In this document: positions 208 through 37,954 of the stretch, one piece after another
Numbering within the stretch: the stretch's first letter is position 1
How the letters are laid out: each line of letters opens with the position of its first letter
Sequence record: MF093736
DNA from: Shigella phage vB_SsoS-ISF002
Length of the DNA: 50,564 nt
Direction: 5' to 3' (one strand)
Program-made: the position numbers and the translations under genes
The notes under the pieces: model-generated
The model's input: only the letters and a program-made list of their open reading frames with translations
The model's database searches: none
What the model was told of the DNA's origin: nothing

Positions 208-208
208 T

Positions 209-21128: not shown

Positions 21129-21137
21129 TATGTGGCG

Positions 21138-21491
21138 TTAATCCATAGATGTAAACTGCTCCATAAACGTGACGTTAATCTCCATCACGTCGCGTGATAC
21201 TGGCTTCGCGCCCAGGCTGTTAGGCTTAACAACCCATATCCCGATCTTTCCGTCCGGCGGCGTCCATGCGAACGGTTTAATGCGGTGAGAATCACAGAAG
21301 TCGTAAACAGCCATGAAATCTTCCCCGGCATAGATAACCGAATACTCGCGTCTCGTGGTGTTAAATCCAGATGATGCAAGCTGCATGTAGCCGTTTCCAA
21401 ACTGTATGGATCTGTCATTGTTGGTAGTGGTAAGGGAGCCGCCGCCCCCTTGAACCTGCGTGCACCAACTGAAAGTATCAAGTGCCGCCAT
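21138..21491 (-). CDS. minor tail protein (lambda M-like)
   Basis: 117 aa, directly downstream of the tape measure gene. Confidence 0.65.
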   Translation of the reverse strand: MAALDTFSWCTQVQGGGGSLTTTNNDRSIQFGNGYMQLASSGFNTTRREYSVIYAGEDFMAVYDFCDSHRIKPFAWTPPDGKIGIWVVKPNSLGAKPVSRDVMEINVTFMEQFTSMD

Positions 21492-21493
21492 TA

Positions 21494-24367
21494 TTAGCCT
21501 CCTGTTTTTTCCTGAATGTAATTGTAAACCTCACCGCCCTGCGAACAAGACTCTCGAATCATTTTTTTGAACATCATTTCTACGCCCTGAGAAATTCCTC
21601 TCGGATCTGAACCGTTGTCAACTTTAACCTCCATACCCCTAACATCAACGACCGTCCCGCCTGCTGATTGGTTTACTGCCTTCGGCGCTGATTTAGATGC
21701 GTTAAATCCAGAGGTTGCAACACTACCCGCAGCGGCGGCAAGCGAGGTAACAGCGACACCCGAAGATAAAGACCTAAAACCAGAGGCGGCAGGCGTAGGA
21801 GTTGCCTGTGATGCCGCAGAAGCACCAGGAGACACCCCTCCAGCAAAACTCCACGTCTTACCGCCCATCATGCCTGAGATCGTATTGAATATTACCATCT
21901 GAGCAATCATCTTGATAATCATGCTAATGATGTTTTTCGCAAAGTCCTCAAAGTTTGCCTTACCTGTAGTGAGGAATTGGGTCATCATATCACTCATTCC
22001 ATTAAGTGAACTTGACGCGATATCATATACGTTACCATACATATCCATTGCAGAATCGCCGTAATCTGCAAATGCGCTTTCAGCACCAGCTAACCAGTCA
22101 GCGCGTTTGGCATCTTCCGCAGCGTAGTAATCATTTTGCGCCTTAATCATGTTCTGGAGTTTTTCGTCTCCCTCACTACCTCCAGAGTTGATGTAATCAG
22201 TGGTTATTTTAGCCAGTTCCGCTTGTCGTTCCATCTCGCGCGTGCTAAGACCGCGTGACGCGTTAAGCTGTTCTGTCGCCGCCGTCATCTCATTGACAAA
22301 CTTCAGAGATTTATCGGTAAGATCATTCAACTGTTGTTGCTTAACAATCTGATCGCCAATCTCGGCCTTCTGTTTTGCAAGCTCAATAACTCTCTCCTGA
22401 CTTGCCAGCAACGCTTTCTCTTCCGCAGACAACTGACGCTTAGAACTGGCTTCACGAAGAACAGCAATCGTTGCCTCGGTCGTAAACAGCGCTTTTCTCT
22501 GTGCGGAAAGTTTTTGCCCGATCTCCTTGTGCTCCTGCAATACCTTAAGTTGAGCCTTGAGTGAAATTAACTCCTTGTCGAATTGCTCTGTCGGTGAGCG
22601 TACAATTTTCGACTGCTTATTTCGTTCTCGGTTTCGCTTCTCGATCTCTTCTGCTTCTTTCCTTATTGCTTCCTTAGTTTCCTCGCTGTACTGCTTTTCA
22701 AGAGTGCGACGCTGCCTCATTGCTTCAATGTATCCCATCTCGCCTTTTTCTACACGAGCGTTAATAGCGTCAAGCTCTGAAGCCAACTGGTCGTAGTTGT
22801 CGCGAGAACTTTTTACGATGTTCTCCTGCTCCTTCAGTACATCAGCGCCGAAATCACTCATTCCAGGCAGTGACTGAGTTGCCTTTATGGCTGAGGCGAT
22901 AAAGTTTGAGATGTACTCATCACCCTTCGCTAGAATCATTTTGACCTGAATCACTGTACCCTGAACAACGTCGATAATCAGGTTTAGCGCCCCGAGTGTA
23001 TGATCACCAACCCATCCCCACGCGTCCGAAGCCCATTGTTTAATATCGCTCCACATCTTTTCCAGAGGAGTAGCGTTATCCGCGATCGACTTCATTCGCT
23101 TTTCCATTACGTCTGCGAATAGTTTGGTAGCCTCTGATACAGCCTCAGTTTCTCCTTTCGTCCGGCTTAATGTATCGATATAGGTAAGCTGCCCTTTTTC
23201 AAGGAAATTATATTGCTCGTTTAACTTCTTCAGACCTTTTACCGGATCGCTTGCGATTTTGTCGAACTCAGAAATAATTTGACTTGCTGACTTTCCTGTT
23301 GACGCTGACCACTCTGCGGTAGCCTTAGTGATGTTCTGGATCTGCTCGCGGGTGTACTTACCAGAACTTGCCAACTCCGTTACAATCTCGCGAATACTCC
23401 CAATGGTTGAGTTGCTTGTCTGAGCCACCTTTTTAGCAACAGAATCAAGCTCTTCAGCCGTGACTCCTGCATAACCTCCAGTCTCAACAAGAGCCTTCTG
23501 CATATCAGTTATTGACTTGTAAGAGTCATAACCAGCTTTCGCAAGAAGACCTAAAGAGCCGACAAGAACACCAACACCAACTGTGACCGGATTAATATAG
23601 CTGAGCAATACCTTAAATGTATTCCCGATCCCGCCGAACGAGTCCTTGATTTGACCGCCTTGCTGGATGGCAACCATCCAAACTGGCATACCTGACGCAA
23701 GAGATGTAACGACGTCGGTAATCTGCGCGGGAAGCATTCGCATTGCCTGCCTATATTGCCCAGCGCTAATACCTGCGGCATTCATAGCTCGACCCTGCTC
23801 TTTCAGTTTTGCGATCAGTGGCGCTGCTTCATTTGATAGTCCAAGCTGAGCCGCTTTCAGTTCCATTAACTCTGCGTGAGTTTTGCCAATAGCGTTAACC
23901 TGACTGTTCAGGGAATCCATGAACGCTTTGTTTTTCGCTGCTGCCTGATCTTTTGCTTTCGCTTCCTGCAATGCTGCCTGACCCTCTTCAGTAAGCATGG
24001 CTCGGCTGCGAGCAAGTTTTGCATTTTGCATGTCCAGCATTTCACCCAAACGGAAAAATGTTTCATCTGGAACAACGCCCTTTTGCCAGAGTTTATCAAG
24101 CTGCTGAGATGCAATCTTCAGCCTTTCCATTTTTGATACTGTAGGATCGATTGCCTTTTCTACAGCCTCGTACTCTTTGCGCTGGCGCTTAAGTTGCTCA
24201 GCGTGTTCTTTAGCCTTCTGTTTTGCAACCTCGGCCTCATTGATTAAAGACCCCATAGAGTCAGCGGCTTGGTCGTTAGCTTTTGAAAACTCTTTCAATG
24301 ACTTGACGGCGCGCTGCACTGTCGACACATCAACGTCAAGCGATAGACCTGCTACCTTATCAACCAT
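21494..24367 (-). CDS. tail tape measure protein
   Basis: 957 aa, long coiled-coil regions, hydrophobic Gly-rich C-terminal segment ([23 protein letters not shown]). Confidence 0.85.
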
Positions 24368-24406
24368 ACAACCCCCTTATATACAAAAAAACCGCCAGAC
24401 GGCGGC

Positions 24407-24733
24407 TTAGTTATTCTGCTTAGCAATCATTTCAAGCGCTTTCGCTTCCATGATCCTAACGTCCTGCAATGCCAGTTCTTCATCTTCTATTTTATAGATT
24501 TTAAACAACATAGGCAAAACATTATAGTCAAGACCATAAGCGCCAGCGCCTGAACTTCTCCACTGAGTGAGCATTGATGTAAAAACATTCCAAGCCTTCA
24601 CCATTTCAGCGTCGCCAATTATCGTTTCAGGTTCCTCGTCTTCATAGTCTGAAAGACTTAAACCAACCGATCGCAATTGTTCCTCTGTTGGCGGCTTCTG
24701 ATATAACAGATAGACCGCCTTTTTTAGTTTTTT
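24407..24733 (-). CDS. T segment of the tail assembly chaperone, reached by -1 frameshift from G (fusion product 25041 down to 24407)
   Basis: Frame is open upstream of the annotated TTG start and overlaps the end of G in the -1 frame. Confidence 0.55.
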   Translation of the reverse strand, partial: KKLKKAVYLLYQKPPTEEQLRSVGLSLSDYEDEEPETIIGDAEMVKAWNVFTSMLTQWRSSGAGAYGLDYNVLPMLFKIYKIEDEELALQDVRIMEAKALEMIAKQNN

Positions 24734-25041
24734 GCGCGGTGTCCGGCAAGAGCCTTGATGTAAGTCGCTGTCAGGTTGTACGCTGCTGAAGGATAATACT
24801 GAACCAGTTTTCGCGCATTTTCTTCGTTAAATTCTTCTTCAAGGTTCCATCCTGACGCGATCTTGGTAATGAACTCGCTGTCGTTCATTTCTCCCTGGTT
24901 GGCATACATATCCTGAACTTCTTTACTGGAAAGGTGGCGTACAGTGAAAATGATCGTTGCATCTTCACCGTTAGGCATGGTGAAGGTAACTGGAAGTTTG
25001 AAGTCTGGAAGTTGACCAAGAATAAAATTAAATTTAGCCAT
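24724..25041 (-). CDS. tail assembly chaperone (lambda G-like)
   Basis: 105-aa acidic protein between the major tail protein and the tape measure gene. Confidence 0.7.
   Translation of the reverse strand: MAKFNFILGQLPDFKLPVTFTMPNGEDATIIFTVRHLSSKEVQDMYANQGEMNDSEFITKIASGWNLEEEFNEENARKLVQYYPSAAYNLTATYIKALAGHRAKN
24727..24733 (-). other. slippery heptamer A_AAA_AAC for programmed -1 ribosomal frameshifting
   Basis: Minus-strand reading gca aaa aac taa; the heptamer sits immediately before the G stop and the -1 frame continues open. Confidence 0.6.
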
Positions 25042-25062
25042 GATATTTCTCCTGATTGGTTA

Positions 25063-25082
25063 ATGGCACTTTTTGTTAAAAG
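25063..25082 (+). promoter_or_regulatory. conserved box in the tail-module leader (inverted relative to the gene)
   Basis: atggcactttttgttaaaag. Confidence 0.4.
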
Positions 25083-25124
25083 AGAATAGTGCAAACTTGA
25101 TACGATGATTTTACAGAAATGAAT

Positions 25125-25144
25125 AAGGGGGCGCAAGCCCCCTT
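25125..25144 (-). terminator. hairpin after the major tail protein gene
   Basis: 8-bp stem aagggggc / gccccctt with loop gcaa. Confidence 0.5.
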
Positions 25145-25155
25145 GTGGATATGAT

Positions 25156-25824
25156 TTAGGCACCAGGTGATGCCAGAGCGGATGAAACGAAAGTGAAATC
25201 ACCCTTCAGGGATACGGCGAGTTGTACCGTTTCCATTTCGTTTACTTGCGTAGATGGAATGTCGTTAAAAGACAAGATACCAGCCCACATGCGCATCTCG
25301 TTCGCTTTTGGAACATACATCCGAACCGCAGTTACCTGACCAGAAGAATCCAGCTTACGCAGAATAGGGTAGATCGGGTTATCAAATTCGTGCGCGAATG
25401 TGTAAGTTAGCGAGATCGCAGATTTAAACGTTGGGATCTGCTGTTCTTTATCGTCGGACAAGCACTGATAAGTATAATACTGCTGCTCGCCGCCGTCCTG
25501 ACCAATCTCCTGTACGCAAGGAATCTCAGTCCAGCCAGTAATCTTTGCAAAGCTCATCGTGCCGCCAGCCGGGAAAACAAGAGTATCAGAGGTGTCAATC
25601 CCAGCGAGAGTGATGCTTGTTTCCTGAGCGTCAGTAACAATCAGCACTCGACTGACCATCTTGGCCCAGGTTGACTGAGTTACAATAACGTAATCGCCTT
25701 TTACTAAGTCGCCCTTAGATGCAACTGTAGCAACAGGATTTTCTGCGTTAGTAATAGCGGTTGCCTCAATCTCTTCTCCGCGAGAGGTTTCCACGAAAAT
25801 TTGCGCGCCATTTGGTAAGTGCAT
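25156..25824 (-). CDS. major tail protein (start at internal ATG with aaggaga RBS)
   Basis: Position, size (223 aa) and a strong RBS; followed by a hairpin as is common for abundantly expressed structural genes. Confidence 0.65.
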   Translation of the reverse strand: MHLPNGAQIFVETSRGEEIEATAITNAENPVATVASKGDLVKGDYVIVTQSTWAKMVSRVLIVTDAQETSITLAGIDTSDTLVFPAGGTMSFAKITGWTEIPCVQEIGQDGGEQQYYTYQCLSDDKEQQIPTFKSAISLTYTFAHEFDNPIYPILRKLDSSGQVTAVRMYVPKANEMRMWAGILSFNDIPSTQVNEMETVQLAVSLKGDFTFVSSALASPGA

Positions 25825-25826
25825 AA

Positions 25827-26225
25827 TTAAGTCTCCTTTGTGTCTACTCGTACTGTAAAGCGAACCGGAATCATCCACCCGCTTTCATGTTTAACAATTT
25901 GATGCACGATTGCACCCTCGAAAATATAACCAACGTTAAGCATTTTACCATCTTTGAAAAAATCAGCAATCTCTTTTGCTTTCAATCTTGCTTCGTCAAC
26001 GCCGGATCCTGGAGGGAACACTACTCCGATCTGAACGATTGCGATGTAAGATTTACACTTTCTGTCAATGGATAGATAAAGCGTATCCCCTTCAATGTAG
26101 TTGAACCTCAGCCACATCCCGCCATCCTTCGGCGGTATGAAATTTCTGTTTTCCATGTAGTGAGGAAAGTCTCTGTACTTTGACAGAAAGGCGGATCGCG
26201 CCGCCGCTGATAACTCATAGTGCAT
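25827..26225 (-). CDS. tail terminator / tail completion protein (tentative)
   Basis: Position between head-tail joining genes and the major tail protein. Confidence 0.4.
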   Translation of the reverse strand: MHYELSAAARSAFLSKYRDFPHYMENRNFIPPKDGGMWLRFNYIEGDTLYLSIDRKCKSYIAIVQIGVVFPPGSGVDEARLKAKEIADFFKDGKMLNVGYIFEGAIVHQIVKHESGWMIPVRFTVRVDTKET

Positions 26226-26658
26226 TTTGTTGTCTCCTTGCTTGCTTTATTGCGTCTGCCATATACGATCGCAATCTCAATGCAACCAGCCCGACGACGC
26301 CGTTTGGTGCTTGTTGTGAATGACCGTACTCAAGAGAGTTTGCATAAATCAACATGTTTGAGAAGTGAACGGATGTTATCGCGCCCCCACGGCTGAACAT
26401 GCCATAAGTTTTGGCTTGCTCCTCACTACGGACAACGCCGCCAGTTTTATCGTATCGATTTAATGCGTAGTTAGGGATTTCGTTAAAAGTTATCTGCCAG
26501 TTACCCTTAAAGCGCCCCGTGTCGACGGGAGAACGGCTAACGAGCGCGTCGTGAACATCCCTTACAAATATCTCAATGGAATGTTCTAACGTGCTTTCAG
26601 CGGCCTTAATCCACGCATCAATCTCACCTTGAAATCTACGAATCTGATAATTAGCCAT
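26215..26658 (-). CDS. HK97 gp10-like tail component protein
   Basis: Segment SPVDTGRFKGNWQ typical of the HK97 gp10 family. Confidence 0.5.
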   Translation of the reverse strand: MANYQIRRFQGEIDAWIKAAESTLEHSIEIFVRDVHDALVSRSPVDTGRFKGNWQITFNEIPNYALNRYDKTGGVVRSEEQAKTYGMFSRGGAITSVHFSNMLIYANSLEYGHSQQAPNGVVGLVALRLRSYMADAIKQARRQQNAL

Positions 26659-27031
26659 CTACTGATACCCTCCGCAATACTGGGCGATAGGCGACTGGTT
26701 TCAGTGACGCCTGAACCGGGCGAGCATCAACGACAACATGACGAACGCCGTCAATCTCTATATAGTCACCTTCGTTTATTTCATGGTCGTTATTGAAGAT
26801 CCCCAAAAGGTCTGAGGCGCGGATAGTCTCCCCGTCAATCTCACGCGCGTTCGGTCTTCGCGTCGCGCCGGATATTGGAATAACCTGTTCCATCGGTGGG
26901 ATCTCGAATCCGTTTTCATCATATCCGTATTCACCTTGCTTTATCAGGTTCATAGGTCTTGATGCATCGGTGAAGAAAGCCACGCCTTTGCGAGCCATCC
27001 TTTCGATCTGTGAGTAGTTCATTGGTGGCAT
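26651..27031 (-). CDS. head-tail adaptor / head closure protein (tentative)
   Basis: Position and size. Confidence 0.4.
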   Translation of the reverse strand: MPPMNYSQIERMARKGVAFFTDASRPMNLIKQGEYGYDENGFEIPPMEQVIPISGATRRPNAREIDGETIRASDLLGIFNNDHEINEGDYIEIDGVRHVVVDARPVQASLKPVAYRPVLRRVSVDG

Positions 27032-27441
27032 CCTCCACGGAGTCCTGTCATTAATGCGAATCGACCACGGCGTCGCGCTTTAAGCTGTTCGAACATCTTA
27101 CCCCACGGCGTCGAAAGCATCATGTTCTCTGACTGGTTCTTCGTCACCTCTCCAAAAGTCTGGCTAAATTCACCGCTCAGGGAGAATGACGTAACGCGTC
27201 GTGAGTACGATTCAAGATCCTCATCTTCACCTTTTAGCGCCCCATCAAGGAAAGCAAGGTGCAATGCATAAAGAGCAAGCGCCTTGACGTATGCATCTTT
27301 AAAGGTCTTCTGGCATACAAATAGCTCAGCCATTTCTACCCATGCATAAAGCGTTTCGTCTGGAACCTTGCGAAGTGCCGGAACCAGCTTTCTCATTTGC
27401 TCGACCACTTTGTTTAATGTTTCTTGATCCATAATTTCCAC
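27019..27441 (-). CDS. head-tail connector protein (tentative)
   Basis: Position and size. Confidence 0.4.
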   Translation of the reverse strand: MEIMDQETLNKVVEQMRKLVPALRKVPDETLYAWVEMAELFVCQKTFKDAYVKALALYALHLAFLDGALKGEDEDLESYSRRVTSFSLSGEFSQTFGEVTKNQSENMMLSTPWGKMFEQLKARRRGRFALMTGLRGGCHQ

Positions 27442-27445
27442 CTAT

Positions 27446-27469
27446 AAAAAAAGGCGCATTAAGCGCCTT
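27446..27469 (-). terminator. terminator-like hairpin
   Basis: Stem aaggcgc / gcgcctt, loop attaa, preceded by an A-run. Confidence 0.45.
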
Positions 27470-27474
27470 GTTGA

Positions 27475-27765
27475 TTAATAGTATTCGCCGCCGTCTTCAA
27501 GCTCTTTTACGCTCATCTTATCCCACGGATCAGGTTTTTTAAGTTTAGCCATCTCTGCGCGGATTTCCCGGTTGGTGGCACTGTCGTCTTTTACTTCGAT
27601 TTCTTCGCGAGCAATCAAGCAACGCAGCCCGGGCAATTCAAGTGCGGATGCTGGGAGTGTCACCTCTTCATCCGGGAGAACCTTTGCGAATGAGCCATCT
27701 TCAAGACGGAACATCTGAAGCGCTACACCAACGTTTACGATAACAACAGTTTTTTCTTTAGCCAT
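27475..27765 (-). CDS. hypothetical structural protein (96 aa)
   Basis: ORF between the major capsid and connector genes. Confidence 0.45.
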   Translation of the reverse strand: MAKEKTVVIVNVGVALQMFRLEDGSFAKVLPDEEVTLPASALELPGLRCLIAREEIEVKDDSATNREIRAEMAKLKKPDPWDKMSVKELEDGGEYY

Positions 27766-27780
27766 TTTGATTTCTCCAAT

Positions 27781-27807
27781 AAAAAAGGGACCAACTAAGT
27801 TAGTCCC
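27781..27807 (-). terminator. hairpin after the major capsid gene
   Basis: aaaaaagggaccaactaagttagtccc. Confidence 0.45.
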
Positions 27808-27814
27808 TATAATA

Positions 27815-28774
27815 TTACACGCCAGTGATTAAGACAATAGTCATCGGACGATAAATTGTAAGGCCAGTACACTTGGAGGTGCAAGGCACTTTAAAGTGAA
27901 GGTCTTTCGGCTGCGCTGGCAGCATGTTAAATGCTTCCGGGATCTCGATGGACATATTCATCGGATTTTTTTCGTACACCAGTACGCCTTTAGTACCCGC
28001 ACCGTCGATATCTTCAAGCTCTGCGATAGAGTCGATTTCGATACCAGCATTCTGAGACTTGAAATAGTCCAGGTAAGACATGGTAGTTTCAGGCATACGG
28101 ATCGCCAGAACCTTACGCATGGACGGCGGGATCAGAATGTTGGTTGCACGATGCTGACCGCGAGTAATCGTCTCGATGGTTTCAATCGCCTGAGTCAATT
28201 CCGCTTCAGCCGTTTCCGGCTTCGGAGTTGAGACATTCATCCACTTACCGGAGGTAATTTTGGTGATGTTCGGATGGTTGAACACGGACACGATCTTGTG
28301 CGGCGCGGAACCTTTGAACACCAGACGGTTAACCAGTTGGTCATGCGCTAACTGACACGCGCTTGCCTTGCGGGTTGACAGCGGTCGACCAGTTGCCTGA
28401 CCTGCTTTGATTTCGTCGATTGAAATCAGGTACGCGTTACCCAAGCGGAACACCTTACCGAACTCAGAAGTACCAAGCGCATCAACCAGAGGCAGGTCAT
28501 CTGTATAGTCAGCGATAATCTGCGCAGTACCAACCTTATCAAAGGTCATATACTCAAACGTCTTGTCGGTCGGAGATAGATCGGTAGTAACCGGGAATAC
28601 TCGAAGTGCGGAGCCTACCGGGTAGTCTTCTTCATAGGACTGGCTTTTGATGCGGTGTAGTTCCTGAGCGGTCCAGATACCCATCGTTGCGGCTGCATCC
28701 TGTTTTACGCCAGCCTGGATCAGATACATTTCAACATTGCTCTTATCTGCTTCATCAAATTTTTTAGTAGTCAT
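27815..28774 (-). CDS. major capsid protein
   Basis: 319 aa, strong RBS aaggaga, flanked by hairpins, located after the scaffold and decoration-like genes. Confidence 0.7.
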   Translation of the reverse strand: MTTKKFDEADKSNVEMYLIQAGVKQDAAATMGIWTAQELHRIKSQSYEEDYPVGSALRVFPVTTDLSPTDKTFEYMTFDKVGTAQIIADYTDDLPLVDALGTSEFGKVFRLGNAYLISIDEIKAGQATGRPLSTRKASACQLAHDQLVNRLVFKGSAPHKIVSVFNHPNITKITSGKWMNVSTPKPETAEAELTQAIETIETITRGQHRATNILIPPSMRKVLAIRMPETTMSYLDYFKSQNAGIEIDSIAELEDIDGAGTKGVLVYEKNPMNMSIEIPEAFNMLPAQPKDLHFKVPCTSKCTGLTIYRPMTIVLITGV

Positions 28775-28829
28775 GATTACTTCTCCTTAGTTAATAAAAA
28801 AAGCCGTGATTATGTTCACGGCTTCAATA

Positions 28830-28848
28830 ATAGCACTTTTTGTTAAAG
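28830..28848 (+). promoter_or_regulatory. conserved box upstream of the major capsid gene (inverted relative to the gene)
   Basis: atagcactttttgttaaag. Confidence 0.4.
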
Positions 28849-28866
28849 CGTCAAAGTATTTTTGTG

Positions 28867-29634
28867 TTATGACTCTTCTTCTTCGGCTGGCGCAGCATCA
28901 AAAACATAAGTGATCGATTCTTTAGTTTTGCTGGCATCGTTAGCCGTCCAATTTACGATTACGCTACCTGCCGCATCTCCACCAATTGGAGTAAGAACGC
29001 CAGATTTTGGATCTATTGTCGCAATATTTTCAGCATCAACAGACCACACGCCAGTTTTATCGGTGGCATTGTCAGGTTTTACAGCAACGTTAAATTGCAC
29101 AGGTGCATTGTTTGGCTGAGGACTCTCCTTGTTAGTTGTAATCGTCGCAGACTCAACAAGAACCACGGGAGGGGGTGGAGGTGGAACAATAAAGGCATTT
29201 TGCTTAACCTGAACCTCAATAATGTACCCGTCCTCGTGCTTAACAAATCCACCAGCAAAAGTCCAACCTACGGAACCAGAGCTACCAGTAACAACACCAC
29301 CAGATCCAAATTGTAACTTTGAGAACAAGGCCGGAGCTTCATCAAGAGAAGTTAGCGTCCACACGCGACCATGAGAAACGACGTTGCAAACTTCACCGTC
29401 GAGGATTTTACCGCTCAGGTGTTCATATTGGGAACGGAAAGCGATTCCGTAAGGTGTTTCACCATCAGTAAGCGTGGAAACAACCTTAACGCCGTCAACA
29501 ATACCGATAACTTTAACAGCGGAGCCGAACTCAATATCGCCTTGAGCAACACAAGATCCATCAATATTGTAGGTTGAAGTATCCGAAAGATTACCAGGGC
29601 ACGCCGGGCGTAACATTAAATTTTCGTAAGGCAT
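28867..29634 (-). CDS. structural protein, paralogue of 29694..30170 with a Pro-linker and Ig-like C-terminal extension (possible capsid decoration)
   Basis: N-terminal 140 aa align with the upstream paralogue (NIDGSCVAQGD ... HGRVWTLTSLDEAPALF); then PPPPPP and a beta-rich domain. Confidence 0.5.
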   Translation of the reverse strand: MPYENLMLRPACPGNLSDTSTYNIDGSCVAQGDIEFGSAVKVIGIVDGVKVVSTLTDGETPYGIAFRSQYEHLSGKILDGEVCNVVSHGRVWTLTSLDEAPALFSKLQFGSGGVVTGSSGSVGWTFAGGFVKHEDGYIIEVQVKQNAFIVPPPPPPVVLVESATITTNKESPQPNNAPVQFNVAVKPDNATDKTGVWSVDAENIATIDPKSGVLTPIGGDAAGSVIVNWTANDASKTKESITYVFDAAPAEEEES

Positions 29635-29693
29635 AGTATTTTCTCCATAAAAAAAGGACTACCCAAAAGGATAGTCCCCATATTAAACACTAA

Positions 29694-30170
29694 TTACAGT
29701 TGATGCAACTGAACTTCAACAAGCTGAATGTCTTTATATTTGGTCCAGCCGCCAGCGTAGGTCCAAGTTGTTTCGATCGTACCATCAGATTTCTCTTGAC
29801 CGTCAACGTCAAGTTTTACAGCGGTCCCGAAGGTTGGTGCTTCTTCTGATTTGGAAAGCATCCAGACTCGCCCGGAGGTCATGACGTTGATAGCACCGCC
29901 ATCTTCGTAAATCATCTGATTATCTTTGTTCACAGTCTGCCAGTGAGATCGAATAGCTACGCCATACGGCACTTTAGACGATTCCATAGCCTTAACCAAT
30001 TTATGGCCGTCAACGGCTTGGGCTTGAACAACCTGTACGGCAGCGCCAACAAAAACATCACCTTCGTTAACGACGCAAGCGCCATCAATATTATACTTCG
30101 AAGTATCCGCAACCATACCCGGAAGCGCAATAGCCATGTCTCGCTGATAAGATGCATTAATCTGTGCCAT
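29694..30170 (-). CDS. structural protein, paralogue of 28867..29634 (possible capsid decoration or cement)
   Basis: NIDGACVVNEGD ... SGRVWMLSKSEEAPTFG parallels the downstream paralogue. Confidence 0.5.
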   Translation of the reverse strand: MAQINASYQRDMAIALPGMVADTSKYNIDGACVVNEGDVFVGAAVQVVQAQAVDGHKLVKAMESSKVPYGVAIRSHWQTVNKDNQMIYEDGGAINVMTSGRVWMLSKSEEAPTFGTAVKLDVDGQEKSDGTIETTWTYAGGWTKYKDIQLVEVQLHQL

Positions 30171-30181
30171 GATATTTCCCC

Positions 30182-31294
30182 TTACATTACTTTGCTTAAA
30201 CGTGAATTTGGCGTAACAGGTGCGGCGTCGTTTTTCTCTTCCGGCTTACCGCCTTCGATAGAATCGCCTTTTACCGCCTTACGCTGAATAGCCATAATAT
30301 CAGAATCCTTAGCAACATCAAACATAGCGTCGATATATGCGTCTGATTTTTCGCTAACATCTTTATCAAGCATAGCTTTGACAACAGCGACCTTAACGTC
30401 TTTGATATCAAGACCATCATGTTTAACGCCTGCGGTTTCCGCTACTGCGGTGACTTCAGCACGCGCTGCGGCGTCAGCTTTTTGCTTCTCTACTTCGGCC
30501 TTCACCAGTTCCGGCAGGGAGTCAACCTTAACCTTCAGCGCATCGCGCTCAGCTTCTAAGCCATCAGCTTTCCCCTGAATGGTGGCAATCTGCGCGGTTA
30601 ATTTTTCGATATGGTTCGCAACATCTTCGGTCACTTCCACATCAACTGAGTCGATCTTAATTTTTTTCATTTGCTTGTCCTCGTTAGTTAATTGAACGTT
30701 ATTATCATACGGGAACTCCTGCTCGGCATCAAGGTTTAATTTAGCAATTCCAGCGCGACCCTTGAAAACAAGTGCAATGTGGTTTACCTTGATGTTTGTT
30801 TGAACAGCATCGAATTTAACCCAACCTTCAGGCGGCGCTTCGTCCTGTTTCATATCCTCTTCGAAGATATATTCTCCAGTCTCATTTGAACCCCATCCCG
30901 GCTTATCAATATCTACTGACGTGTAGCCAACAGATAATTCACCAGCTTCTTTTGCTTTAGCCTTGCTGATCGCGTAGTCGCTGTAAATGCTCAAAGGGAC
31001 TTCAACTCCAACGCCTGAAGCAATACCAGCGCCAGCGCACGATCCTACAACAACGTCCTTAGCATTTTGCGGAGTCACCGTTACGTGACCTACTGTGATC
31101 GGCTTGCCTGCAAAACTTTGCAAGGAATCTTGCTTGAAAACTTCGGACGCCGGACGGAACTCAACGCGATCGCCGTGGGGAGTCTTGTAAACCTGAGCAC
31201 CGATTCGCGCCACGATGGGACGGTCAACCAAAAAACCATTATCATCAAAGTGCGCCTTGATTTTTACCGAGTCGAATCTTTGCTTTGCCTTCAT
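30182..31294 (-). CDS. capsid scaffolding protein, possibly with an N-terminal prohead protease-like domain
   Basis: C-terminal coiled coil rich in A/E/K; placed between the head morphogenesis and capsid genes; start at the internal ATG next to the upstream stop. Confidence 0.5.
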   Translation of the reverse strand: MKAKQRFDSVKIKAHFDDNGFLVDRPIVARIGAQVYKTPHGDRVEFRPASEVFKQDSLQSFAGKPITVGHVTVTPQNAKDVVVGSCAGAGIASGVGVEVPLSIYSDYAISKAKAKEAGELSVGYTSVDIDKPGWGSNETGEYIFEEDMKQDEAPPEGWVKFDAVQTNIKVNHIALVFKGRAGIAKLNLDAEQEFPYDNNVQLTNEDKQMKKIKIDSVDVEVTEDVANHIEKLTAQIATIQGKADGLEAERDALKVKVDSLPELVKAEVEKQKADAAARAEVTAVAETAGVKHDGLDIKDVKVAVVKAMLDKDVSEKSDAYIDAMFDVAKDSDIMAIQRKAVKGDSIEGGKPEEKNDAAPVTPNSRLSKVM

Positions 31295-31296
31295 TT

Positions 31297-32058
31297 TTAA
31301 TCTCCTGTAGAAAAGTCTGGAACAGCCCAACAGCGGCAATTGTATTCTTCACCAGGGAATACGTGATCGGAATCTACCGCTATCCGCTTACCTTCCCATC
31401 TTACATGTTTTTCACGTTCGCGTAAATCCATCACCCCGCGCCAGAAATAGTAATAGACTCCAGCGTCTTTTATGCGCTGCCGCATCAGTCTACTGTTCCA
31501 GGTTCCGACAATTCCCGACGCTCTATTTTTGGCCCAATTCCGGTAAATACCAAATCGCTCCTTAGCAAGATCAACAACAAAATCATTGCTTTTACCCTGA
31601 CCGGATGCCGCACGAAGTTTATCAGTGAAATCAGTAACCATGTTGGCGGCAAATTTCCTGATAGAAGTAGTCACCTGCGATCGCCACAGATTATATTGTC
31701 CTGAGTACCAGTTTTCGGCAGCGGTAGGACCAATCAGGGCAAGTAGCATTACGGCTTGATTCTTCTTACCTCCAGCATTTCGAGCTATTCGCAACCACTG
31801 CTTAGAGTTGAATTTATAGATAGTTAGCGCGACGGATGATAGAGATCCGATAATCGGCGCGATTAGAGATTCGACGTAATCAAGCAATGACCTTTCCGCT
31901 TTGTCTATCTCTTCGTCGGTAGCGTCAAATTTCATCGGCTTTAATTCGTCACGCATTTTTTCAGTTAGTTTGGCTGCAACATCCTGTAGGGAGCGCGACA
32001 TTGCGCGCTCGCTCATTTCAGGATAGCGCCACTGTGTTGCAACGCCATTAATCTTCAT
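31297..32058 (-). CDS. minor head / head morphogenesis protein (Mu F-like)
   Basis: C-terminal YNCRCWAVP motif; position after the portal. Confidence 0.65.
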   Translation of the reverse strand: MKINGVATQWRYPEMSERAMSRSLQDVAAKLTEKMRDELKPMKFDATDEEIDKAERSLLDYVESLIAPIIGSLSSVALTIYKFNSKQWLRIARNAGGKKNQAVMLLALIGPTAAENWYSGQYNLWRSQVTTSIRKFAANMVTDFTDKLRAASGQGKSNDFVVDLAKERFGIYRNWAKNRASGIVGTWNSRLMRQRIKDAGVYYYFWRGVMDLREREKHVRWEGKRIAVDSDHVFPGEEYNCRCWAVPDFSTGD

Positions 32059-33331
32059 CTTCTAACTTCTCCCCTAATCCCGGCTCCGGCTCTGTTGTTT
32101 CTTCCGGTTCGCGAATGTTGATGTTATTACCATCCTTGAGTTTGAACTCAGGCGCAATGGATCGCAACGTGTCGCGAGCTTCTTCCAGATCGATGATTTG
32201 CTCGGTGATGGCTTTCGTTACCGACTCAATGTTGTTCTTCGTGATCTCGGATTCTTCTTTCTTGCTCGGGACCGACAGCGGCTCAAACTCGATGGACCAC
32301 TCTTCTTCGTCAACAATGAATGGCAAAATAAACTCAAGAAGCGGCCTGTAATCCTCTTCTCGTTTACGATCGATTAACTTATAGAAAGTCTCAAGCGCTG
32401 TGTTCTGACTGGCTGATACGCCACCAACGTTCTTATTCTTGATGATAATCTCATGAATACCAGAAAGCGAGACAATGCGGTCCATCTTGCTTGATAGGAA
32501 CTCAGGAACTCCGCTGATATCAGAGTTTAGAACGTCGTATTCTTCCGTCTCGGCATCGATACCGATCGCACGGCCAACACCTGAATTATCGTCAACCTGA
32601 GCCAGTCTCAAGCGCGCTGCATACTGAGCATCATCATCATCACACATTTCAGCAAGACCTTTGACTTTCCATACCGCCTGCTGCTTACGCCTCAGGATCT
32701 GAGTCGCTAGAGATTCGCAGTAGTCGTAATCGCAGATCGCATCAATCAGTGACTTGTTCAAAACTGAAGCACCCCACCCTTGATTCTGCTTTCGAATCTG
32801 AGGTGTTACTCGCTCACCATCAGCAATAAAAATTCTTGTGTGGTGGATTAAGTAAGGTTGAAGATTATCACCAGGAGATACCTTGTATATCTCAGGCTCA
32901 CCATAGCGAGGCGATCGAGCATTGGTTACTCTTTTTTCGATTGTAATTGCGAATCTATCATAAACACGCACACCTTCAAGTTTAGCTCCAGGTTTAACAG
33001 GGCTGGTTAACATTCTGTTGTCATTAATGATCGCTACAATAGCCGCTCCACCGTATAGGCGCGCCCAGCAAAGAACATCAACCAAGCTAGGATCAATTTT
33101 GTAACTATCCCACAGAGATTTGAACTCCTTTTCATCCTTGACTCCTGATATTTTAAAACCAGCCGTAACCATCTCTTCAGGGATCACGTCGACAATTCTT
33201 TTCGCTGTCGCGTTATCGTTATAGAATGAGCCGACGTTATATGACGCATCAACCATAAAAAATGGTTTAGGTGAGCCGTCCGCGCCGCCGTTAAAGATAT
33301 CGTTATAACCATCATGCTTAACAATTTTCAT
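32048..33331 (-). CDS. portal protein
   Basis: 427 aa immediately downstream of the large terminase; acidic C-terminus. Confidence 0.75.
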   Translation of the reverse strand: MKIVKHDGYNDIFNGGADGSPKPFFMVDASYNVGSFYNDNATAKRIVDVIPEEMVTAGFKISGVKDEKEFKSLWDSYKIDPSLVDVLCWARLYGGAAIVAIINDNRMLTSPVKPGAKLEGVRVYDRFAITIEKRVTNARSPRYGEPEIYKVSPGDNLQPYLIHHTRIFIADGERVTPQIRKQNQGWGASVLNKSLIDAICDYDYCESLATQILRRKQQAVWKVKGLAEMCDDDDAQYAARLRLAQVDDNSGVGRAIGIDAETEEYDVLNSDISGVPEFLSSKMDRIVSLSGIHEIIIKNKNVGGVSASQNTALETFYKLIDRKREEDYRPLLEFILPFIVDEEEWSIEFEPLSVPSKKEESEITKNNIESVTKAITEQIIDLEEARDTLRSIAPEFKLKDGNNINIREPEETTEPEPGLGEKLEDED

Positions 33332-33387
33332 ACTTTCCCTCCAATAAAAAAGGCCGTCAATTGACAGCCTTGATTATATCTCATTTA

Positions 33388-34989
33388 TTACCGCTTAACC
33401 ATCCCAGCGAGTCGCTTCATTCTCTCGATAGGATCATCAATGGTCAGCAATTCGATGTTCGCCGCATCCATGAAGTTATCGACGATATCATCATGCGGAT
33501 GGGTGTCATCGTAAGTGAAGGAGCTATGTTCTGCGATGATTTCCGCAAGCATAGGGTGCTCTTCTGGAAGAACCACGCGCCCTGCCTTAATTACTGGCTG
33601 AGCATCCATAGCTCGGGTAACTTTATCTTTGTTACGCTGCAATGGTGTGATTGAGATCGGAGTCTTTTTCCTTAAGTTCTGAATCAAGCCCGTCCCGCTC
33701 GCCTTATCTTCCACGTAGATTTTGCGAAGCACGCCCATTGATTTATTGTGCCTCCATGCCTGATTCACAAAGGCGGTAAATTGTTTCTCCATATCAGGCG
33801 CTTCCCACTTGCCGCGAATGCCGTCGATAAAGTAAACCTTATCGTTTTTCTTACCCCATAAACAAAAGACTGTGTAGTCGTTTAGCTCACCTGTCTTCTG
33901 AGCGGTATCAGCGGTGATAAAACGGTAATCATATTTACCCGGATCTGGCTCGTCAGCGTCAAGGCTGCTTCCGTAATAAGTCCACCACTCCGAGTTAAAC
34001 ACGGAGCCACCAAGCGCTATCGGCTTCTGCTGATACTGAGAGTCAAAGGTATACTGGTCCGCTTCTCGAAGAGCTAACAGGTCGTGAACGCTTTCCTTGC
34101 TGGGCCAGAATGAGTAATGCTTAACTCCATCCAATTCTACATACTCAGACGACAAAACGTCGCGCTCGAAGTATGGTTGTAACCAGTCAGGAAGCGTCTT
34201 TCCGTATTCCTCAGTTACTAGTGCCGGAATCGAGATCTGATCAAACTCAATACCCATACCTCCATTCATCATAAACCAAGTTGAATCCTGCGCGTGCAGT
34301 CGCTGCTGGATTGCGATAATCGGCGTCTCGTTGTGCATACGACGGGATCGTATGGTGTTCTTTAATAGCATGTGAGTACGCTCACGCTTAACCTTTGAGA
34401 ACATATCGTCAGGCTTGTCTATATCGTCGAGCATTACCATCCCGGAGAATCCTGGCGTCATGTAGCCGCCACGCGAACCTGTAATTCGACCGCCAGCCGC
34501 TGCGGAGATTAGTTCGAACCAGACCTTACCGTCGCTGTTAAGGACTTGCATCTCTTCGTCTTTTGATGTGCCGAACTTACAGGGCCATAGCTCCTGGAAC
34601 TCGTTGCTGCTGATAATCTCACGCACTCGCTTACTGTTACGCTTAACCAGACTATCGGCAAACGACACGTTAAGGTTTCGCACCTTCTTACACTTGAGCA
34701 TCGCGTAAACCGGAAGGTGGATTGAGAACACCTCAGTCTTACCGGAACCGGGCGTGACGTTAAAGATAGTATTCCCGCGTCGGCCTGCAATAATTTCCTC
34801 CACTTCGTGGCATAGGTAAAGGTGATGCCAGTTAGGCTGGAACTGCTGCGCCTGCATAAGCTGGAACCAGATCCGAATCATTTTTTCGAAATTGGCCTCG
34901 CTCATTTTCTTGATCGCTAACTTCTGAGTTGCGTCGAGTTCTTCCCATTGAATCATATCAATTCTCCTGTATGGGCGCTTGCGCGCCAC
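33388..34989 (-). CDS. terminase large subunit
   Basis: Walker A TPGSGKT, ATPase then nuclease domain order, 533 aa. Confidence 0.85.
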   Translation of the reverse strand: MARKRPYRRIDMIQWEELDATQKLAIKKMSEANFEKMIRIWFQLMQAQQFQPNWHHLYLCHEVEEIIAGRRGNTIFNVTPGSGKTEVFSIHLPVYAMLKCKKVRNLNVSFADSLVKRNSKRVREIISSNEFQELWPCKFGTSKDEEMQVLNSDGKVWFELISAAAGGRITGSRGGYMTPGFSGMVMLDDIDKPDDMFSKVKRERTHMLLKNTIRSRRMHNETPIIAIQQRLHAQDSTWFMMNGGMGIEFDQISIPALVTEEYGKTLPDWLQPYFERDVLSSEYVELDGVKHYSFWPSKESVHDLLALREADQYTFDSQYQQKPIALGGSVFNSEWWTYYGSSLDADEPDPGKYDYRFITADTAQKTGELNDYTVFCLWGKKNDKVYFIDGIRGKWEAPDMEKQFTAFVNQAWRHNKSMGVLRKIYVEDKASGTGLIQNLRKKTPISITPLQRNKDKVTRAMDAQPVIKAGRVVLPEEHPMLAEIIAEHSSFTYDDTHPHDDIVDNFMDAANIELLTIDDPIERMKRLAGMVKR

Positions 34990-34994
34990 TAACG

Positions 34995-35519
34995 TTAAAG
35001 CATATCAAGAATGCTGTTTACTGCCTCTTTCATTGCATCCTCAGTAGTGGCGACTACTGTCGATGCGGAAGCTGACGAGTTTTCGATATTGATTGAGGCT
35101 GGCTTATCGATTCCCAAATCCTTACCGATAAAGGAGGCGTTAATCACACCGTTGGCAGCAAGCTGGAATTTTTGCTCGTTGATTACAGATTCCACGAACT
35201 CCATAACCTCACTGTACTCTTCCTCGCGTTTCCATTTAATGATTGCGGCCTCGCTTGCTCCTATGAATAGTCGGTATCCGGTCCAAGTGAAGACGCGCGG
35301 CTTATGAACAAGTGACTCGTAAACGCCACCCTGGAAGCTGGCTGATTCTGACGCCTTGATCGCATTATCTTCGGCCCATTCAAAATACTTAACTGACAGA
35401 TCGAATAATTGCTCAGGAGTCATTGCCCGATTCTTCGCAAGAACAGTGCCAAACTTTTTCTTGTATAGCTCTTTGAAATTACCTCCCTGAACTACAGGGG
35501 CGTTCTTAGGTTCACTCAT
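34995..35519 (-). CDS. terminase small subunit (tentative)
   Basis: 174 aa directly upstream of the large terminase; first gene after a box and hairpin. Confidence 0.5.
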   Translation of the reverse strand: MSEPKNAPVVQGGNFKELYKKKFGTVLAKNRAMTPEQLFDLSVKYFEWAEDNAIKASESASFQGGVYESLVHKPRVFTWTGYRLFIGASEAAIIKWKREEEYSEVMEFVESVINEQKFQLAANGVINASFIGKDLGIDKPASINIENSSASASTVVATTEDAMKEAVNSILDML

Positions 35520-35534
35520 AAATCAATCCTCTTC

Positions 35535-35553
35535 GTTTAACATTTAGTGCTAT
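35535..35553 (-). promoter_or_regulatory. conserved box (variant) at the start of the packaging/structural operon
   Basis: Plus strand ttaacatttagtgctat. Confidence 0.4.
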
Positions 35554-35577
35554 TTTACCATATTGCAGGCATAAAAA

Positions 35578-35595
35578 AACCCGCCGTAGCGGGTT
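35578..35595 (-). terminator. hairpin upstream of the terminase operon
   Basis: aaacccgccgtagcgggtt preceded by an A-run. Confidence 0.45.
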
Positions 35596-35603
35596 ATTGA
35601 TTA

Positions 35604-35831
35604 TCACGATAATCGTCGTTTAATGCCTTTATGGTGTAGCCGTGCTTTAGAATAGCAGTGAGCAAGATCACCAATCATTTCCCACTGGTCCTTCTTAGGT
35701 GAGTAGGTCAGCCATACGCCAGTTTTATCTTTTGCTTCCATAGCCATCATGAACGCTACAAGAACGAAGCCAGAAAATAAACCAGCACCAAAAATAACGA
35801 TACAAGCGATAATCCATAAAAAAATTTCCAT
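35604..35831 (-). CDS. small membrane protein
   Basis: Hydrophobic N-terminal segment IIACIVIFGAGLFSGFVLVAFMMAM. Confidence 0.45.
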   Translation of the reverse strand: MEIFLWIIACIVIFGAGLFSGFVLVAFMMAMEAKDKTGVWLTYSPKKDQWEMIGDLAHCYSKARLHHKGIKRRLS

Positions 35832-35832
35832 G

Positions 35833-36018
35833 TTAAATCTCCTTAATTAATTCAATGTTTATTTTGTGAGTGTCAAGGTTAGCGCCGGAAAGTTTTTTTG
35901 CTTTCGTGATGGCTTCATCCTGACTGGTTGCTGATAATTCAGTCTCGAAAGATTGTTTGCATGATTGGCAAAACATCCCCATCTTTCGAATGATTAATTT
36001 AACTTTGAATCGCTTCAT
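35833..36018 (-). CDS. hypothetical protein (61 aa)
   Basis: ORF with ATG start. Confidence 0.4.
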   Translation of the reverse strand: MKRFKVKLIIRKMGMFCQSCKQSFETELSATSQDEAITKAKKLSGANLDTHKINIELIKEI

Positions 36019-36160
36019 CTTCTTGCGCCTTAATCATAACGCCATCGATGCGACCAATAACGGCCTCTCCAGGATTTAACCGCTTTTTATAACGAGTCGT
36101 TTTGCCGTTGCGAGTTACTTTAATTTCGATTTTGACTGATTCGTCTTTGATATTTTGCAT
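35999..36160 (-). CDS. hypothetical small protein (53 aa; not in the supplied ORF track)
   Basis: Hand translation MQNIKDESVKIEIKVTRNGKTTRYKKRLNPGEAVIGRIDGVMIKAQEDEAIQS*; RBS agagga. Confidence 0.3.
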   Translation of the reverse strand: MQNIKDESVKIEIKVTRNGKTTRYKKRLNPGEAVIGRIDGVMIKAQEDEAIQS

Positions 36161-36324
36161 TATGCAATCCTCTGGAATTGTTGCCGCTTACGGGTCTGCG
36201 GCGTTGCTTAACCACTATGCAACCGAGCTTGTTAGCTGGAAGTGTGAGAATCGTCTCACGCGTTGCGCTTCTTTGCGCCTCGTCTGTCTACGGGATTAAT
36301 ACTATCACCGCTCAGCGATTCAGG

Positions 36325-36528
36325 TCAATCATTAATTTCGAATTGTCCCTTAGTCATATCCTGCGGGTAATCAATCTCATGCAAGTTTCCATCGTCGCCG
36401 TACACATATACGAGTCTCTTTGCTTTACTAACCTTTTCCACATCGTAAGAGCATCCCGCTGAGAAAGCATCACTATTGCGTGATGTAATGCATCGAACCT
36501 GATCGCCTTTCTTCGGTAAGTTAGCCAT
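36325..36528 (-). CDS. hypothetical protein (67 aa)
   Basis: ORF in the early leftward arm. Confidence 0.4.
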   Translation of the reverse strand: MANLPKKGDQVRCITSRNSDAFSAGCSYDVEKVSKAKRLVYVYGDDGNLHEIDYPQDMTKGQFEIND

Positions 36529-36758
36529 TATTCGTAATCCCCCTCTTTGTTACCTACACGCCCTGCGATATACCCGGCAGTCCAGACAAACTTGTATCGG
36601 TCAATGAGTAGCTCAACCTTTTTGTGATGAGTTGAGATCACATCAATCATAATCTTTTCGTTTTTGCGATCTTCTTTCTTCATTCCGCTAACGAATTTAT
36701 TCAATTCCTTCGCTGCGCGCTTTACTACGTTCCATTCCGCTTCACTTAAACCGAACAT
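36528..36758 (-). CDS. hypothetical protein (76 aa)
   Basis: ORF whose start overlaps the upstream stop. Confidence 0.4.
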   Translation of the reverse strand: MFGLSEAEWNVVKRAAKELNKFVSGMKKEDRKNEKIMIDVISTHHKKVELLIDRYKFVWTAGYIAGRVGNKEGDYE

Positions 36759-37102
36759 TATTTACCTCTCCCAAATGAAAAATTAACACCTAAAACCTGA
36801 TTGCAAACTGATTCCATGTATCGCAACTGATATTGAGCAACCTTTGAAGGGCTTAATTCATCAGTAAATAAGTCATCAACATTGATTTCTTTTTTATGCT
36901 TGCGCTTCCATGCCTTGATGATATTTGGCAGGATTCGCTCGCTTTTCCAGGCTGCAAACTCAGCTTGATTCGTTGACACAGGAGTAAGTTGTTTTTCGAT
37001 CTGGTTTAGCAACTCGGCGGCTGCTCCTTTTATATGCAACTGGTCGCCGATCGCATCAAGGATTTCACGAGCTTGCTTCTCTGACAGGTTAATCGTAATC
37101 AT
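36758..37102 (-). CDS. hypothetical protein (114 aa)
   Basis: ORF whose start overlaps the upstream stop. Confidence 0.4.
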   Translation of the reverse strand: MITINLSEKQAREILDAIGDQLHIKGAAAELLNQIEKQLTPVSTNQAEFAAWKSERILPNIIKAWKRKHKKEINVDDLFTDELSPSKVAQYQLRYMESVCNQVLGVNFSFGRGK

Positions 37103-37308
37103 GCCTCTTCCCCCTCATCTTCGATCGGTGTAAAAAACTGAGTGTTCACTGCCGGGTTGTAATAAACCCCGTCATCATAGTCGCTTTCTTTCACTTCAAT
37201 GAAAACGTCGCAACCGTCATGCATGAAATCACCGTTATCAGTATGAACGAGTTCGAATACTTCAGAAGTTTTATTGCAAGTGAAAAACTTATCAGTTGAC
37301 ACCATCAT
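37099..37308 (-). CDS. hypothetical acidic protein (69 aa)
   Basis: ORF preceded by a box unit and the leader catcgacaacgaa. Confidence 0.45.
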   Translation of the reverse strand: MMVSTDKFFTCNKTSEVFELVHTDNGDFMHDGCDVFIEVKESDYDDGVYYNPAVNTQFFTPIEDEGEEA

Positions 37309-37364
37309 TTCGATTTTCTCTCTTCGTTGTCGATGAGGTGACTATATCAAATCACCCCACCGAC

Positions 37365-37384
37365 GTTTTAGCAATTAGTGCTAT
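37365..37384 (-). promoter_or_regulatory. conserved intergenic box
   Basis: Plus strand gttttagcaattagtgctat. Confidence 0.5.
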
Positions 37385-37953: not shown

Positions 37954-37954
37954 G

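Follow-up and report, generated by a model that had tools for sequence, protein, structure and literature searches.

The cement pair of T1-like siphophages is already known from two cryo-EM studies of 2025 and from the current Pfam. The capsid structure of phage T1 was deposited as PDB 9KZJ (Viruses 2025, PMC11945409). The T1 head is T=7 and contains 415 copies of the capsid protein, and its threefold and quasi-threefold axes are occupied by cement trimers, i.e., 80 homotrimers of gp49 and 60 heterotrimers in which gp48 and gp49 are combined 1:2 (PMC11945409). Both proteins have a beta-tulip fold; gp48 is confined to the outer surface, and the N-terminus of gp49 is embedded in the shell, unlike that of decoration proteins that stay on the surface (PMC11945409). 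The gp48 model covers residues 2-153. Residues 154-255 gave weak, flexible protruding density, for which an AlphaFold3 model was used, and the authors suggested, as a suggestion only, that this Ig part may aid adsorption (PMC11945409). PDB entries 9KMG and 9KMH fit Escherichia phage FCWL1, the structure paper of which is given as Cai et al. 2025, Structure 33:663, in the citation of PMC13033339. In the FCWL1 record, gp28 is called 'decoration protein' and gp29 'IgG-domain-containing decoration protein'. The KanT1 paper does not mention these two proteins.

More distant systems share the fold or the mode of display. Pseudomonas myophage E217 gp24 and cyanophage Pam3 gp6 have the family PF22758 in common with the pair described here and form beta-tulip trimers on threefold and quasi-threefold axes, in which an N-terminal arm touches the capsid protein. 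The Pam3 head is T=7 with 140 trimers, as in T1, and the E217 head is T=9. However, the cement of E217 and of Pam3 is a single protein that lacks a Big_2 domain and forms only homotrimers, whereas our locus has a duplicated pair and, by orthology, would form mixed trimers. Lambda gpD, TW1 gp56, and P74-26 gp87 share a principle with these proteins, namely trimeric beta-tulip clamps that reinforce an expanded HK97-fold shell at threefold sites; the likeness to decoration proteins of the lambda gpD type has been drawn by both the T1 authors (PMC11945409) and the E217 authors. Ig-like domains on capsids are represented by T5 pb10 and the auxiliary capsid protein of phiCrAss001, in which the domain stands on a linker off the capsid, is dispensable for assembly, and has been proposed to provide weak adherence. 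T4 Hoc is a comparable capsid-displayed Ig-like protein. Proteins of the Hoc/pb10 type are monomers at hexamer centres, whereas the anchor in our case is predicted to be a cement-trimer subunit at a quasi-threefold site, and its Ig-like domain is of the Big_2 type. Capsid-displayed Ig domains are usually interpreted as weak adhesins. For the idea of Ig adherence, the T1 authors refer to T5 and phiCrAss001 (PMC11945409).

We analyzed the whole 50,564-nucleotide stretch of sequence record MF093736 (Shigella phage vB_SsoS-ISF002), hereafter the window. In a DNA search, the 4-kb stretch around the pair shared 99.6% identity with Escherichia phage vB_EcoS_SA12KD and 97.6% with Shigella phage ISF001, and this query matched 71 phage records, several of which are classed as Tunavirus, Drexlerviridae. 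The coordinates of the window are nearly base-for-base collinear with the 50.5-kb ISF001 genome. Judged from this collinearity and the DNA matches, the window is essentially the complete genome of a T1-like phage (Tunavirus, Drexlerviridae). Neither tRNA genes nor Rfam families at the gathering score were found anywhere in it. The 1.4-kb region of the pair is 82% identical to T1 at the DNA level, with an identical gene order. On the minus strand, the genes for terminase, portal, head morphogenesis protein, and protease/scaffold are followed by the short and then the long paralogue, and downstream of these lie the genes for the major capsid protein (PF09950), a DUF7444 protein, and the neck and tail proteins. 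The genes and protein domains at the locus are listed below in the order of transcription.

30182..31294, minus strand: prohead protease (DUF2213) fused to a coiled-coil scaffold-like region (PF09979, E 9e-26; phrog_530, E 3.5e-110)
29694..30170, minus strand: predicted short cement gene, 158 aa, orthologue of T1 gp49 and FCWL1 gp28 (ORF, PF22758, PDB match)
29706..30161, minus strand: Phage_cement domain of the short protein, residues 4-155 (PF22758)
28867..29634, minus strand: predicted long cement gene, 255 aa, orthologue of T1 gp48 and FCWL1 gp29 (ORF, PF22758 plus Big_2, PDB match)
29206..29613, minus strand: Phage_cement domain of the long protein, residues 8-143 (PF22758)
29167..29184, minus strand: six-proline linker, residues 151-156, encoded by six CCN codons (read from the sequence)
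28921..29148, minus strand: Big_2 Ig-like domain, residues 163-238; a short acidic tail comes after it (PF02368)
27815..28774, minus strand: major capsid protein gene (PF09950, E 2.1e-62; phrog_264, E 5.5e-104; 98.4% identity to T1 gp47)

The original prediction, made from the letters of the window, had placed two paralogous structural genes between the scaffold and major capsid genes. The capsid gene does lie downstream (PF09950, E 2e-62), whereas the word scaffold was only partly accurate; the upstream gene encodes a DUF2213 prohead protease fused to a coiled-coil region, and PHROG labels its family 'head maturation protease' (E 3.5e-110). Its ATG start at 31294 was taken from orthologous annotations. 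The major capsid protein is the binding partner of the cement trimers. Good Shine-Dalgarno sequences precede all three genes, i.e., those of the short cement, long cement, and capsid proteins.

Both open reading frames were recovered on the minus strand at exactly the coordinates first called, 29694..30170 (158 aa) and 28867..29634 (255 aa). The N-terminal domain of about 140 aa that they had been said to share is real and far above chance, as BLASTP aligned 144 aa (residues 15-157 of the short and 11-145 of the long protein), of which 39% were identical and 63% positive (E = 1e-30). The motifs given for this domain were approximately right: the long protein carries NIDGSCVAQGD and HGRVWTLTSLDEAPALF, the short protein carries NIDGACVVNEGD and SGRVWMLSKSEEAPTF, and the deviations amount to a one-residue indel and the replacement of H by S. 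In a Pfam scan, PF22758 (Phage_cement; 'Structural cement protein (E217 gp24/Pam3 gp6)') matched residues 4-155 of the short protein at 105.2 bits (E 4.4e-30) and residues 8-143 of the long protein at 59.8 bits (E 4.1e-16), both above the gathering score of 27 bits. Both paralogues also matched the related family PF23982. The N-terminal domain matched only these two families, and no lambda gpD-like family was found in the scan at E values up to 0.1; the resemblance to lambda gpD is thus at the level of fold and mechanism, with no sequence relation found.

Searches of structure chains with phmmer linked the pair to solved capsids. The short protein matched, over its full length, a 158-aa chain of PDB 9KMG, 9KMH, and 9KZJ named 'Decoration protein | cement protein II' (E 4e-96), and it also matched the Pam3 cement chain 8hdt_G (E 1.7e-4). 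Similarly, the long protein matched two 255-aa chains over its full length, 9KZJ_H ('BIG2 domain-containing protein', E 4e-135) and a chain of 9KMH ('Decoration protein gp29', E 3e-134). A single-sequence AlphaFold2 model of the long protein had a mean pLDDT of 33.5 and a pTM of 0.20; we inferred the beta-tulip fold of both proteins from the solved orthologues, which are 90-93% identical. In the alignment, the short protein has about four extra N-terminal residues relative to the long protein, which matches the difference in T1, where the gp49 arm lies in the shell and gp48 lies outside only. That the proteins would be capsid decoration or cement proteins had been proposed from gene position and the hairpins, and the PF22758 matches together with the full-length matches to the T1 and FCWL1 capsid chains support this proposal. 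The absence of both proteins from purified virions had been named as the outcome that would speak against it; in relatives, the opposite was found, as both are modelled in the T1 virion density and, for mass spectrometry (MS), the mar001J1 record annotates the two orthologues as 'confirmed structural protein by MS'. We found nothing against a cement role. The two genes very probably encode the pair of cement (decoration) proteins that form the trimers on the capsid of a T1-like siphophage.

The pairs of T1 (gp49/gp48) and FCWL1 (gp28/gp29) are the closest described counterparts. They share with the window the order of protease, short cement gene, terminator, long cement gene, and capsid gene, the lengths of 158 and 255 aa, and the PPPPPP linker; identity is 93% for the short protein and about 90% for the N-terminal domain of the long protein. 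As in T1, the paralogues are adjacent between the protease and capsid genes, the short one comes first, and the long one has a C-terminal extension. They differ in the Ig domain, which in the window is another allele (59-60% identity to T1 and FCWL1, dS ~2), near the Shfl1/ISF001 type.

By homology to T1 and FCWL1, the 158-aa protein (gp49 type) would form beta-tulip homotrimers with an N-terminal arm inserted into the shell. In 60 of the 140 trimers, one subunit would be the 255-aa paralogue (gp48 type), and each of these 60 would then contain one long and two short subunits. The long protein would remain on the outer surface and project its Big_2 domain on the rigid six-proline linker. With 60 such heterotrimers among the 140 trimers, a head would contain about 360 short and 60 long copies, by orthology with T1.

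We then compared the pair across phages. A tblastn search with the long protein matched 981 places in 815 phage records, nearly all from T1-like phages of enterobacteria, and 178 of the records cover at least 80% of the protein. The excess of places over records suggests that roughly one record in five holds both genes. Representative phages are as follows.

T1, FCWL1, and CLB_P3 (Tunavirus): short protein 158-159 aa, long protein 255 aa; layout as in the window
Shfl1 (Tunavirus): short 158 aa, long 266 aa; 11-aa tandem duplication within the Ig domain
SRT8 and IME-JL8 (Sertoctavirus): short 158 aa, long 260 aa; without the proline linker
K50 (Klebsiella phage, unclassified in its record): short 158 aa, long 268 aa; no Big_2 match at E <=0.01
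tiwna (Warwickvirus): short 169 aa, long 260 aa
mar001J1 (Warwickvirus): short 159 aa, long 337 aa; two Big_2 domains
IME347 (Badaguanvirus): short 158 aa, long 164 aa; without the Ig domain, with an acidic Pro/Glu tail
KP36 (Webervirus): single cement gene of 173 aa, no long protein

In a neighbour-joining tree of 13 phages rooted on KP36, the short and long clades were reciprocally monophyletic across the two-gene phages, and the long clade evolved faster than the short clade. The separation of the two clades indicates that a single old duplication, missing in Webervirus, probably gave rise to the pair.

The extension of the long protein had been described as a run of six prolines followed by a beta-rich, Ig-like domain, and both parts were borne out: the prolines are encoded by six CCN codons, and PF02368 (Big_2) matched residues 163-238 in the Pfam scan (27.7 bits, E 2.6e-6), above its gathering score of 22.8 bits. 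Big_2 was also matched by the long orthologues of T1, SRT8, tiwna, and mar001J1. The PPPPPP linker is kept in T1, FCWL1, Shfl1, CLB_P3, and mar001J1 and is absent from SRT8, K50, and tiwna. Most lineages with a long paralogue have kept the Ig domain. IME347 is an exception, as its long paralogue has no Ig domain, and for this reason the domain is dispensable for the cement role. In phmmer, the C-terminal part of the long protein matched the C-terminal portion of phage tail tube protein chains (8hqz_p, E 1.3e-5), and in tblastn the Ig domain was about 40% identical to the Ig module of the tail tube proteins of T5-like phages. When the Ig domain alone was used for tblastn, 20 records had at least 80% identity and 52 had 60-80%. 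We also considered whether the domain had been copied from the tail tube protein of the phage itself; this was rejected, as the best local match covered 9/27 residues (E 0.007).

The Ig region does not follow the rest of the capsid proteins in its divergence. The major capsid protein of the window is 98.4% identical to that of T1, 99.1% to that of Shfl1, and 76% to that of mar001J1; the corresponding values are 93.0%, 93.0%, and 77% for the short cement protein, 90.5%, 91.8%, and 84% for the N-terminal domain of the long protein, and 58.6%, 90.8%, and 68% for the Ig region. That is, the Ig domain of the window is closer to that of Warwickvirus mar001J1 than to that of T1, although the capsid protein of mar001J1 is far more distant. 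Using the Nei-Gojobori method, the linker plus Ig part of the window compared with T1 had a dS of 2.27, at which synonymous sites are saturated, and a dN/dS of 0.12, whereas the N-terminal domain of the long protein had a dS of 0.53 and a dN/dS of 0.09. Compared with Shfl1, the dS of the Ig part was only 0.125. The dN/dS of the Ig domain ranged from 0.12 to 0.34, i.e., purifying selection. Rapid positive selection as the cause of the Ig divergence was therefore rejected (saturated dS of ~2.3 against 0.5 in the N-terminal domain, dN/dS 0.12). The saturated dS combined with the low dN/dS points to the Ig domain being an exchangeable cassette, in which old alleles have probably been swapped under purifying selection.

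Three elements that may act in transcription lie between the genes.

29654..29679, minus strand: hairpin 1, after the short gene; 11-bp stem and 4-nt loop, followed by seven T (-16.6 kcal/mol, z -4.1)
28827..28854, minus strand: candidate sigma-70-like promoter; TTGACG, 16 nt, TATTAT, with an extended -10 TG (assigned by motif score)
28800..28825, minus strand: hairpin 2, ahead of the ribosome-binding site of the capsid gene; 10-bp stem, followed by seven T (-15.0 kcal/mol, z -5.6)

The original prediction of a hairpin after each gene was confirmed, and each hairpin has a T-run (29654..29679, z -4.1; 28800..28825, z -5.6). When the window and 11 two-gene relatives were folded, each of the 12 sequences had a hairpin with a T-run after the short gene, and the hairpin 1 stems of tiwna and K50 have a wholly different sequence. 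RNAalifold on 11 two-gene sequences found three compensatory pairs, changed on both sides, in each hairpin. The SA12KD and T1 records list hairpin 1 as a terminator. Additional terminator-like hairpins occur after the genes for the capsid protein and the DUF7444 protein.

The stop codon of the long gene precedes the promoter-like site, and hairpin 2 follows directly after the -10 element of this site. The promoter-like site is the only one that scored 10/12 in 20 kb and is nearly invariant across 11 phages of several genera. A promoter is annotated at the equivalent of 28827..28854 in the SA12KD record and at the corresponding position in that of KP36. The order in KP36 is cement gene, terminator-like hairpin, annotated promoter, and capsid gene; thus, the long gene of two-gene phages sits between a terminator and a promoter. 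With a terminator after the short gene and a promoter at the capsid gene, the long gene would occupy a slot of low transcription, which may help to set a ratio of about 6:1. The long gene would be transcribed mainly by read-through, in keeping with a head that needs about 60 copies of the long protein but about 360 copies of the short one and 415 capsid protein copies. We infer from this arrangement that the terminator-promoter layout could set the 6:1 ratio of short to long protein. As it lies past the -10 element, hairpin 2 could also act as a terminator for transcripts that begin at the promoter. A start about 7 nt past the -10 would fall within the 5' arm of hairpin 2, so that transcripts initiated there might lack the full terminator or might carry a 5' stem-loop. 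The broader proposal, in which this layout sets the copy ratio by read-through (~1:6) and the Ig domain is a swappable cassette, with deeply diverged alleles moving among Drexlerviridae lineages, that possibly tunes the stickiness of the capsid to surfaces, is tentative, and we lean against it as a whole.

Two other roles for the proteins were weighed against that of capsid cement. The proteins might act in assembly only, as a scaffold or chaperone that is missing from mature virions; the genes directly follow the protease/scaffold gene, and several records name homologues 'putative scaffolding protein'. However, near-identical chains have been modelled in the maps of mature T1 and FCWL1 virions, and both mar001J1 orthologues are recorded as MS-confirmed structural proteins, so that this role is already refuted for the orthologues and is extremely improbable here. 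The long protein might instead be a tail component, given the likeness of its Ig domain to major tail and tail tube proteins: residues 157-242 match PHROG 'major tail protein' families, and both the PDB and tblastn searches reached tail tube proteins of T5-like phages. These tail matches are limited to the Ig module, whereas the N-terminal 147 residues are a cement domain, and the tail tube protein of the phage itself has no significant similarity. In 9KZJ and 9KMH, the orthologue is part of the capsid; with the solved structures refuting it, a tail role has next to no likelihood.

For capsid cement proteins, the role of the Ig domain is a separate matter. An exposed Ig domain may provide weak, reversible binding to carbohydrate of the host or the environment and would not be needed for building the capsid. 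Surface adhesion had been raised in the original prediction, as it was by the T1 authors. By analogy with other capsid-displayed Ig domains, weak adhesion to host or environmental glycans is close to an even call, perhaps falling slightly short of one. The pair may also be cement proteins in which the Ig domain is no adhesin and is either a dispensable passenger or has a role in assembly, such as marking the heterotrimer sites or shielding the capsid. The long paralogue of IME347 lacks the domain, its copy number varies (two domains in mar001J1), whole domains have been swapped between lineages, and the same Big_2 module occurs on the tail tube proteins of T5-like phages, all of which would suit such a reading. 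Meanwhile, the low dN/dS (0.12-0.2) over very old alleles reflects sustained purifying selection, so the domain has some role, and it is retained in most lineages with the long paralogue; in addition, the T1 domain protrudes and is flexible, which is not a buttressing position (PMC11945409). We consider a non-adhesive Ig domain less likely than not.

Both genes can now be named with confidence, as a capsid cement protein and an Ig-domain cement protein. Most database records call them 'hypothetical protein', and some carry the wrong names 'putative scaffolding protein', 'HtjA', or 'zonula occludens toxin'. Beyond correct annotation, the importance of the finding is small, and our additions to the known pair are modest, i.e., the Ig allele cassettes, the lineage map of the duplication, and the conserved terminator-promoter layout. 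This layout offers a simple, testable example of how the subunit ratio of a mixed trimer may be set. The exposed Ig domain on its proline linker, at about 60 per head, would be a natural display site for phage engineering. Finally, the diversity of Ig alleles could bear on the environmental persistence or adsorption of T1-like phages.

The cement gene pair follows a prohead-protease gene on the minus strand, and the gene that comes after the capsid gene lies between two hairpins. We recorded these neighbouring features in the window as follows.

30182..31339, minus strand: prohead-protease gene, upstream of the cement pair; DUF2213 domain with a fused long coiled-coil, scaffold-like region
27786..27808 and 27451..27469: terminator-like hairpins, one on each side of the DUF7444 gene
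27475..27765, minus strand: DUF7444 gene, just 3' of the capsid gene; 96 aa, Pfam DUF7444, phrog_2716, T1 gp46 type

The start of the DUF2213 gene was placed at a TTG (31339) in the mechanical open reading frame, and the annotations of orthologues imply an ATG at 31294. Older records name this gene 'major head subunit precursor' or 'capsid and scaffold protein'. Because the DUF7444 gene is enclosed by two terminator-like hairpins, it forms a small transcription unit of its own; the proteins built in the T1 virion model do not include its product. Neither tRNA genes nor Rfam families at gathering score were detected across the whole window (1..50564).

The capsid gene is preceded by a terminator-like hairpin that directly adjoins a sigma-70-like promoter (28800..28854 for the two together, minus strand); the promoter is nearly invariant, and its -10 element is of the extended type. 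A transcription start approximately 7 nt past the -10 element would lie within the 5' arm of the hairpin; therefore, transcripts could meet different fates depending on their origin. Those arriving from upstream could be terminated before the capsid gene, and those initiated at the promoter could escape termination or acquire a 5' stem-loop.

Next to the DNA identity of 97.6% between the relative Shigella phage ISF001 and the window (4 kb searched), the ISF001 short cement protein (locus positions 4468..5771 for the pair) was only 89% identical. Many of its changes were non-conservative and fell at positions that are invariant elsewhere. This divergence looks like sequencing error in the record rather than biology.

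The long cement gene varied among three further relatives, each with its own locus coordinates.

Shigella phage Shfl1, 2587..3387, minus strand: long cement gene, 266 aa
Escherichia phage mar001J1, 2568..3581, minus strand: long paralogue, 337 aa, two tandem Big_2 domains
Escherichia phage IME347, 2482..3126, minus strand: long paralogue without an Ig domain, ending in an acidic Pro/Glu tail

In the Shfl1 protein the 11 residues KPDNATNKTGV occur twice in tandem, without mismatch, within the Ig-like domain, which accounts for its length. According to the record annotation, both the long and the short paralogue of mar001J1 are structural proteins confirmed by mass spectrometry. Immediately beyond the stop codon of the IME347 gene, 20 further in-frame codons, likewise acidic, precede a second stop. 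This arrangement suggests that the extension is degenerating and either gained a nonsense change recently or is subject to read-through.

Finally, we compared the window Ig-like domain (28870..29166, minus strand) with tail tube proteins. It showed no significant similarity to the phage's own tail tube protein and shared ~40% identity over ~78 residues with the C-terminal Ig module of the tail tube proteins of T5-like phages. These sequence matches suggest that the Ig module moves between structural genes across different coliphage groups.
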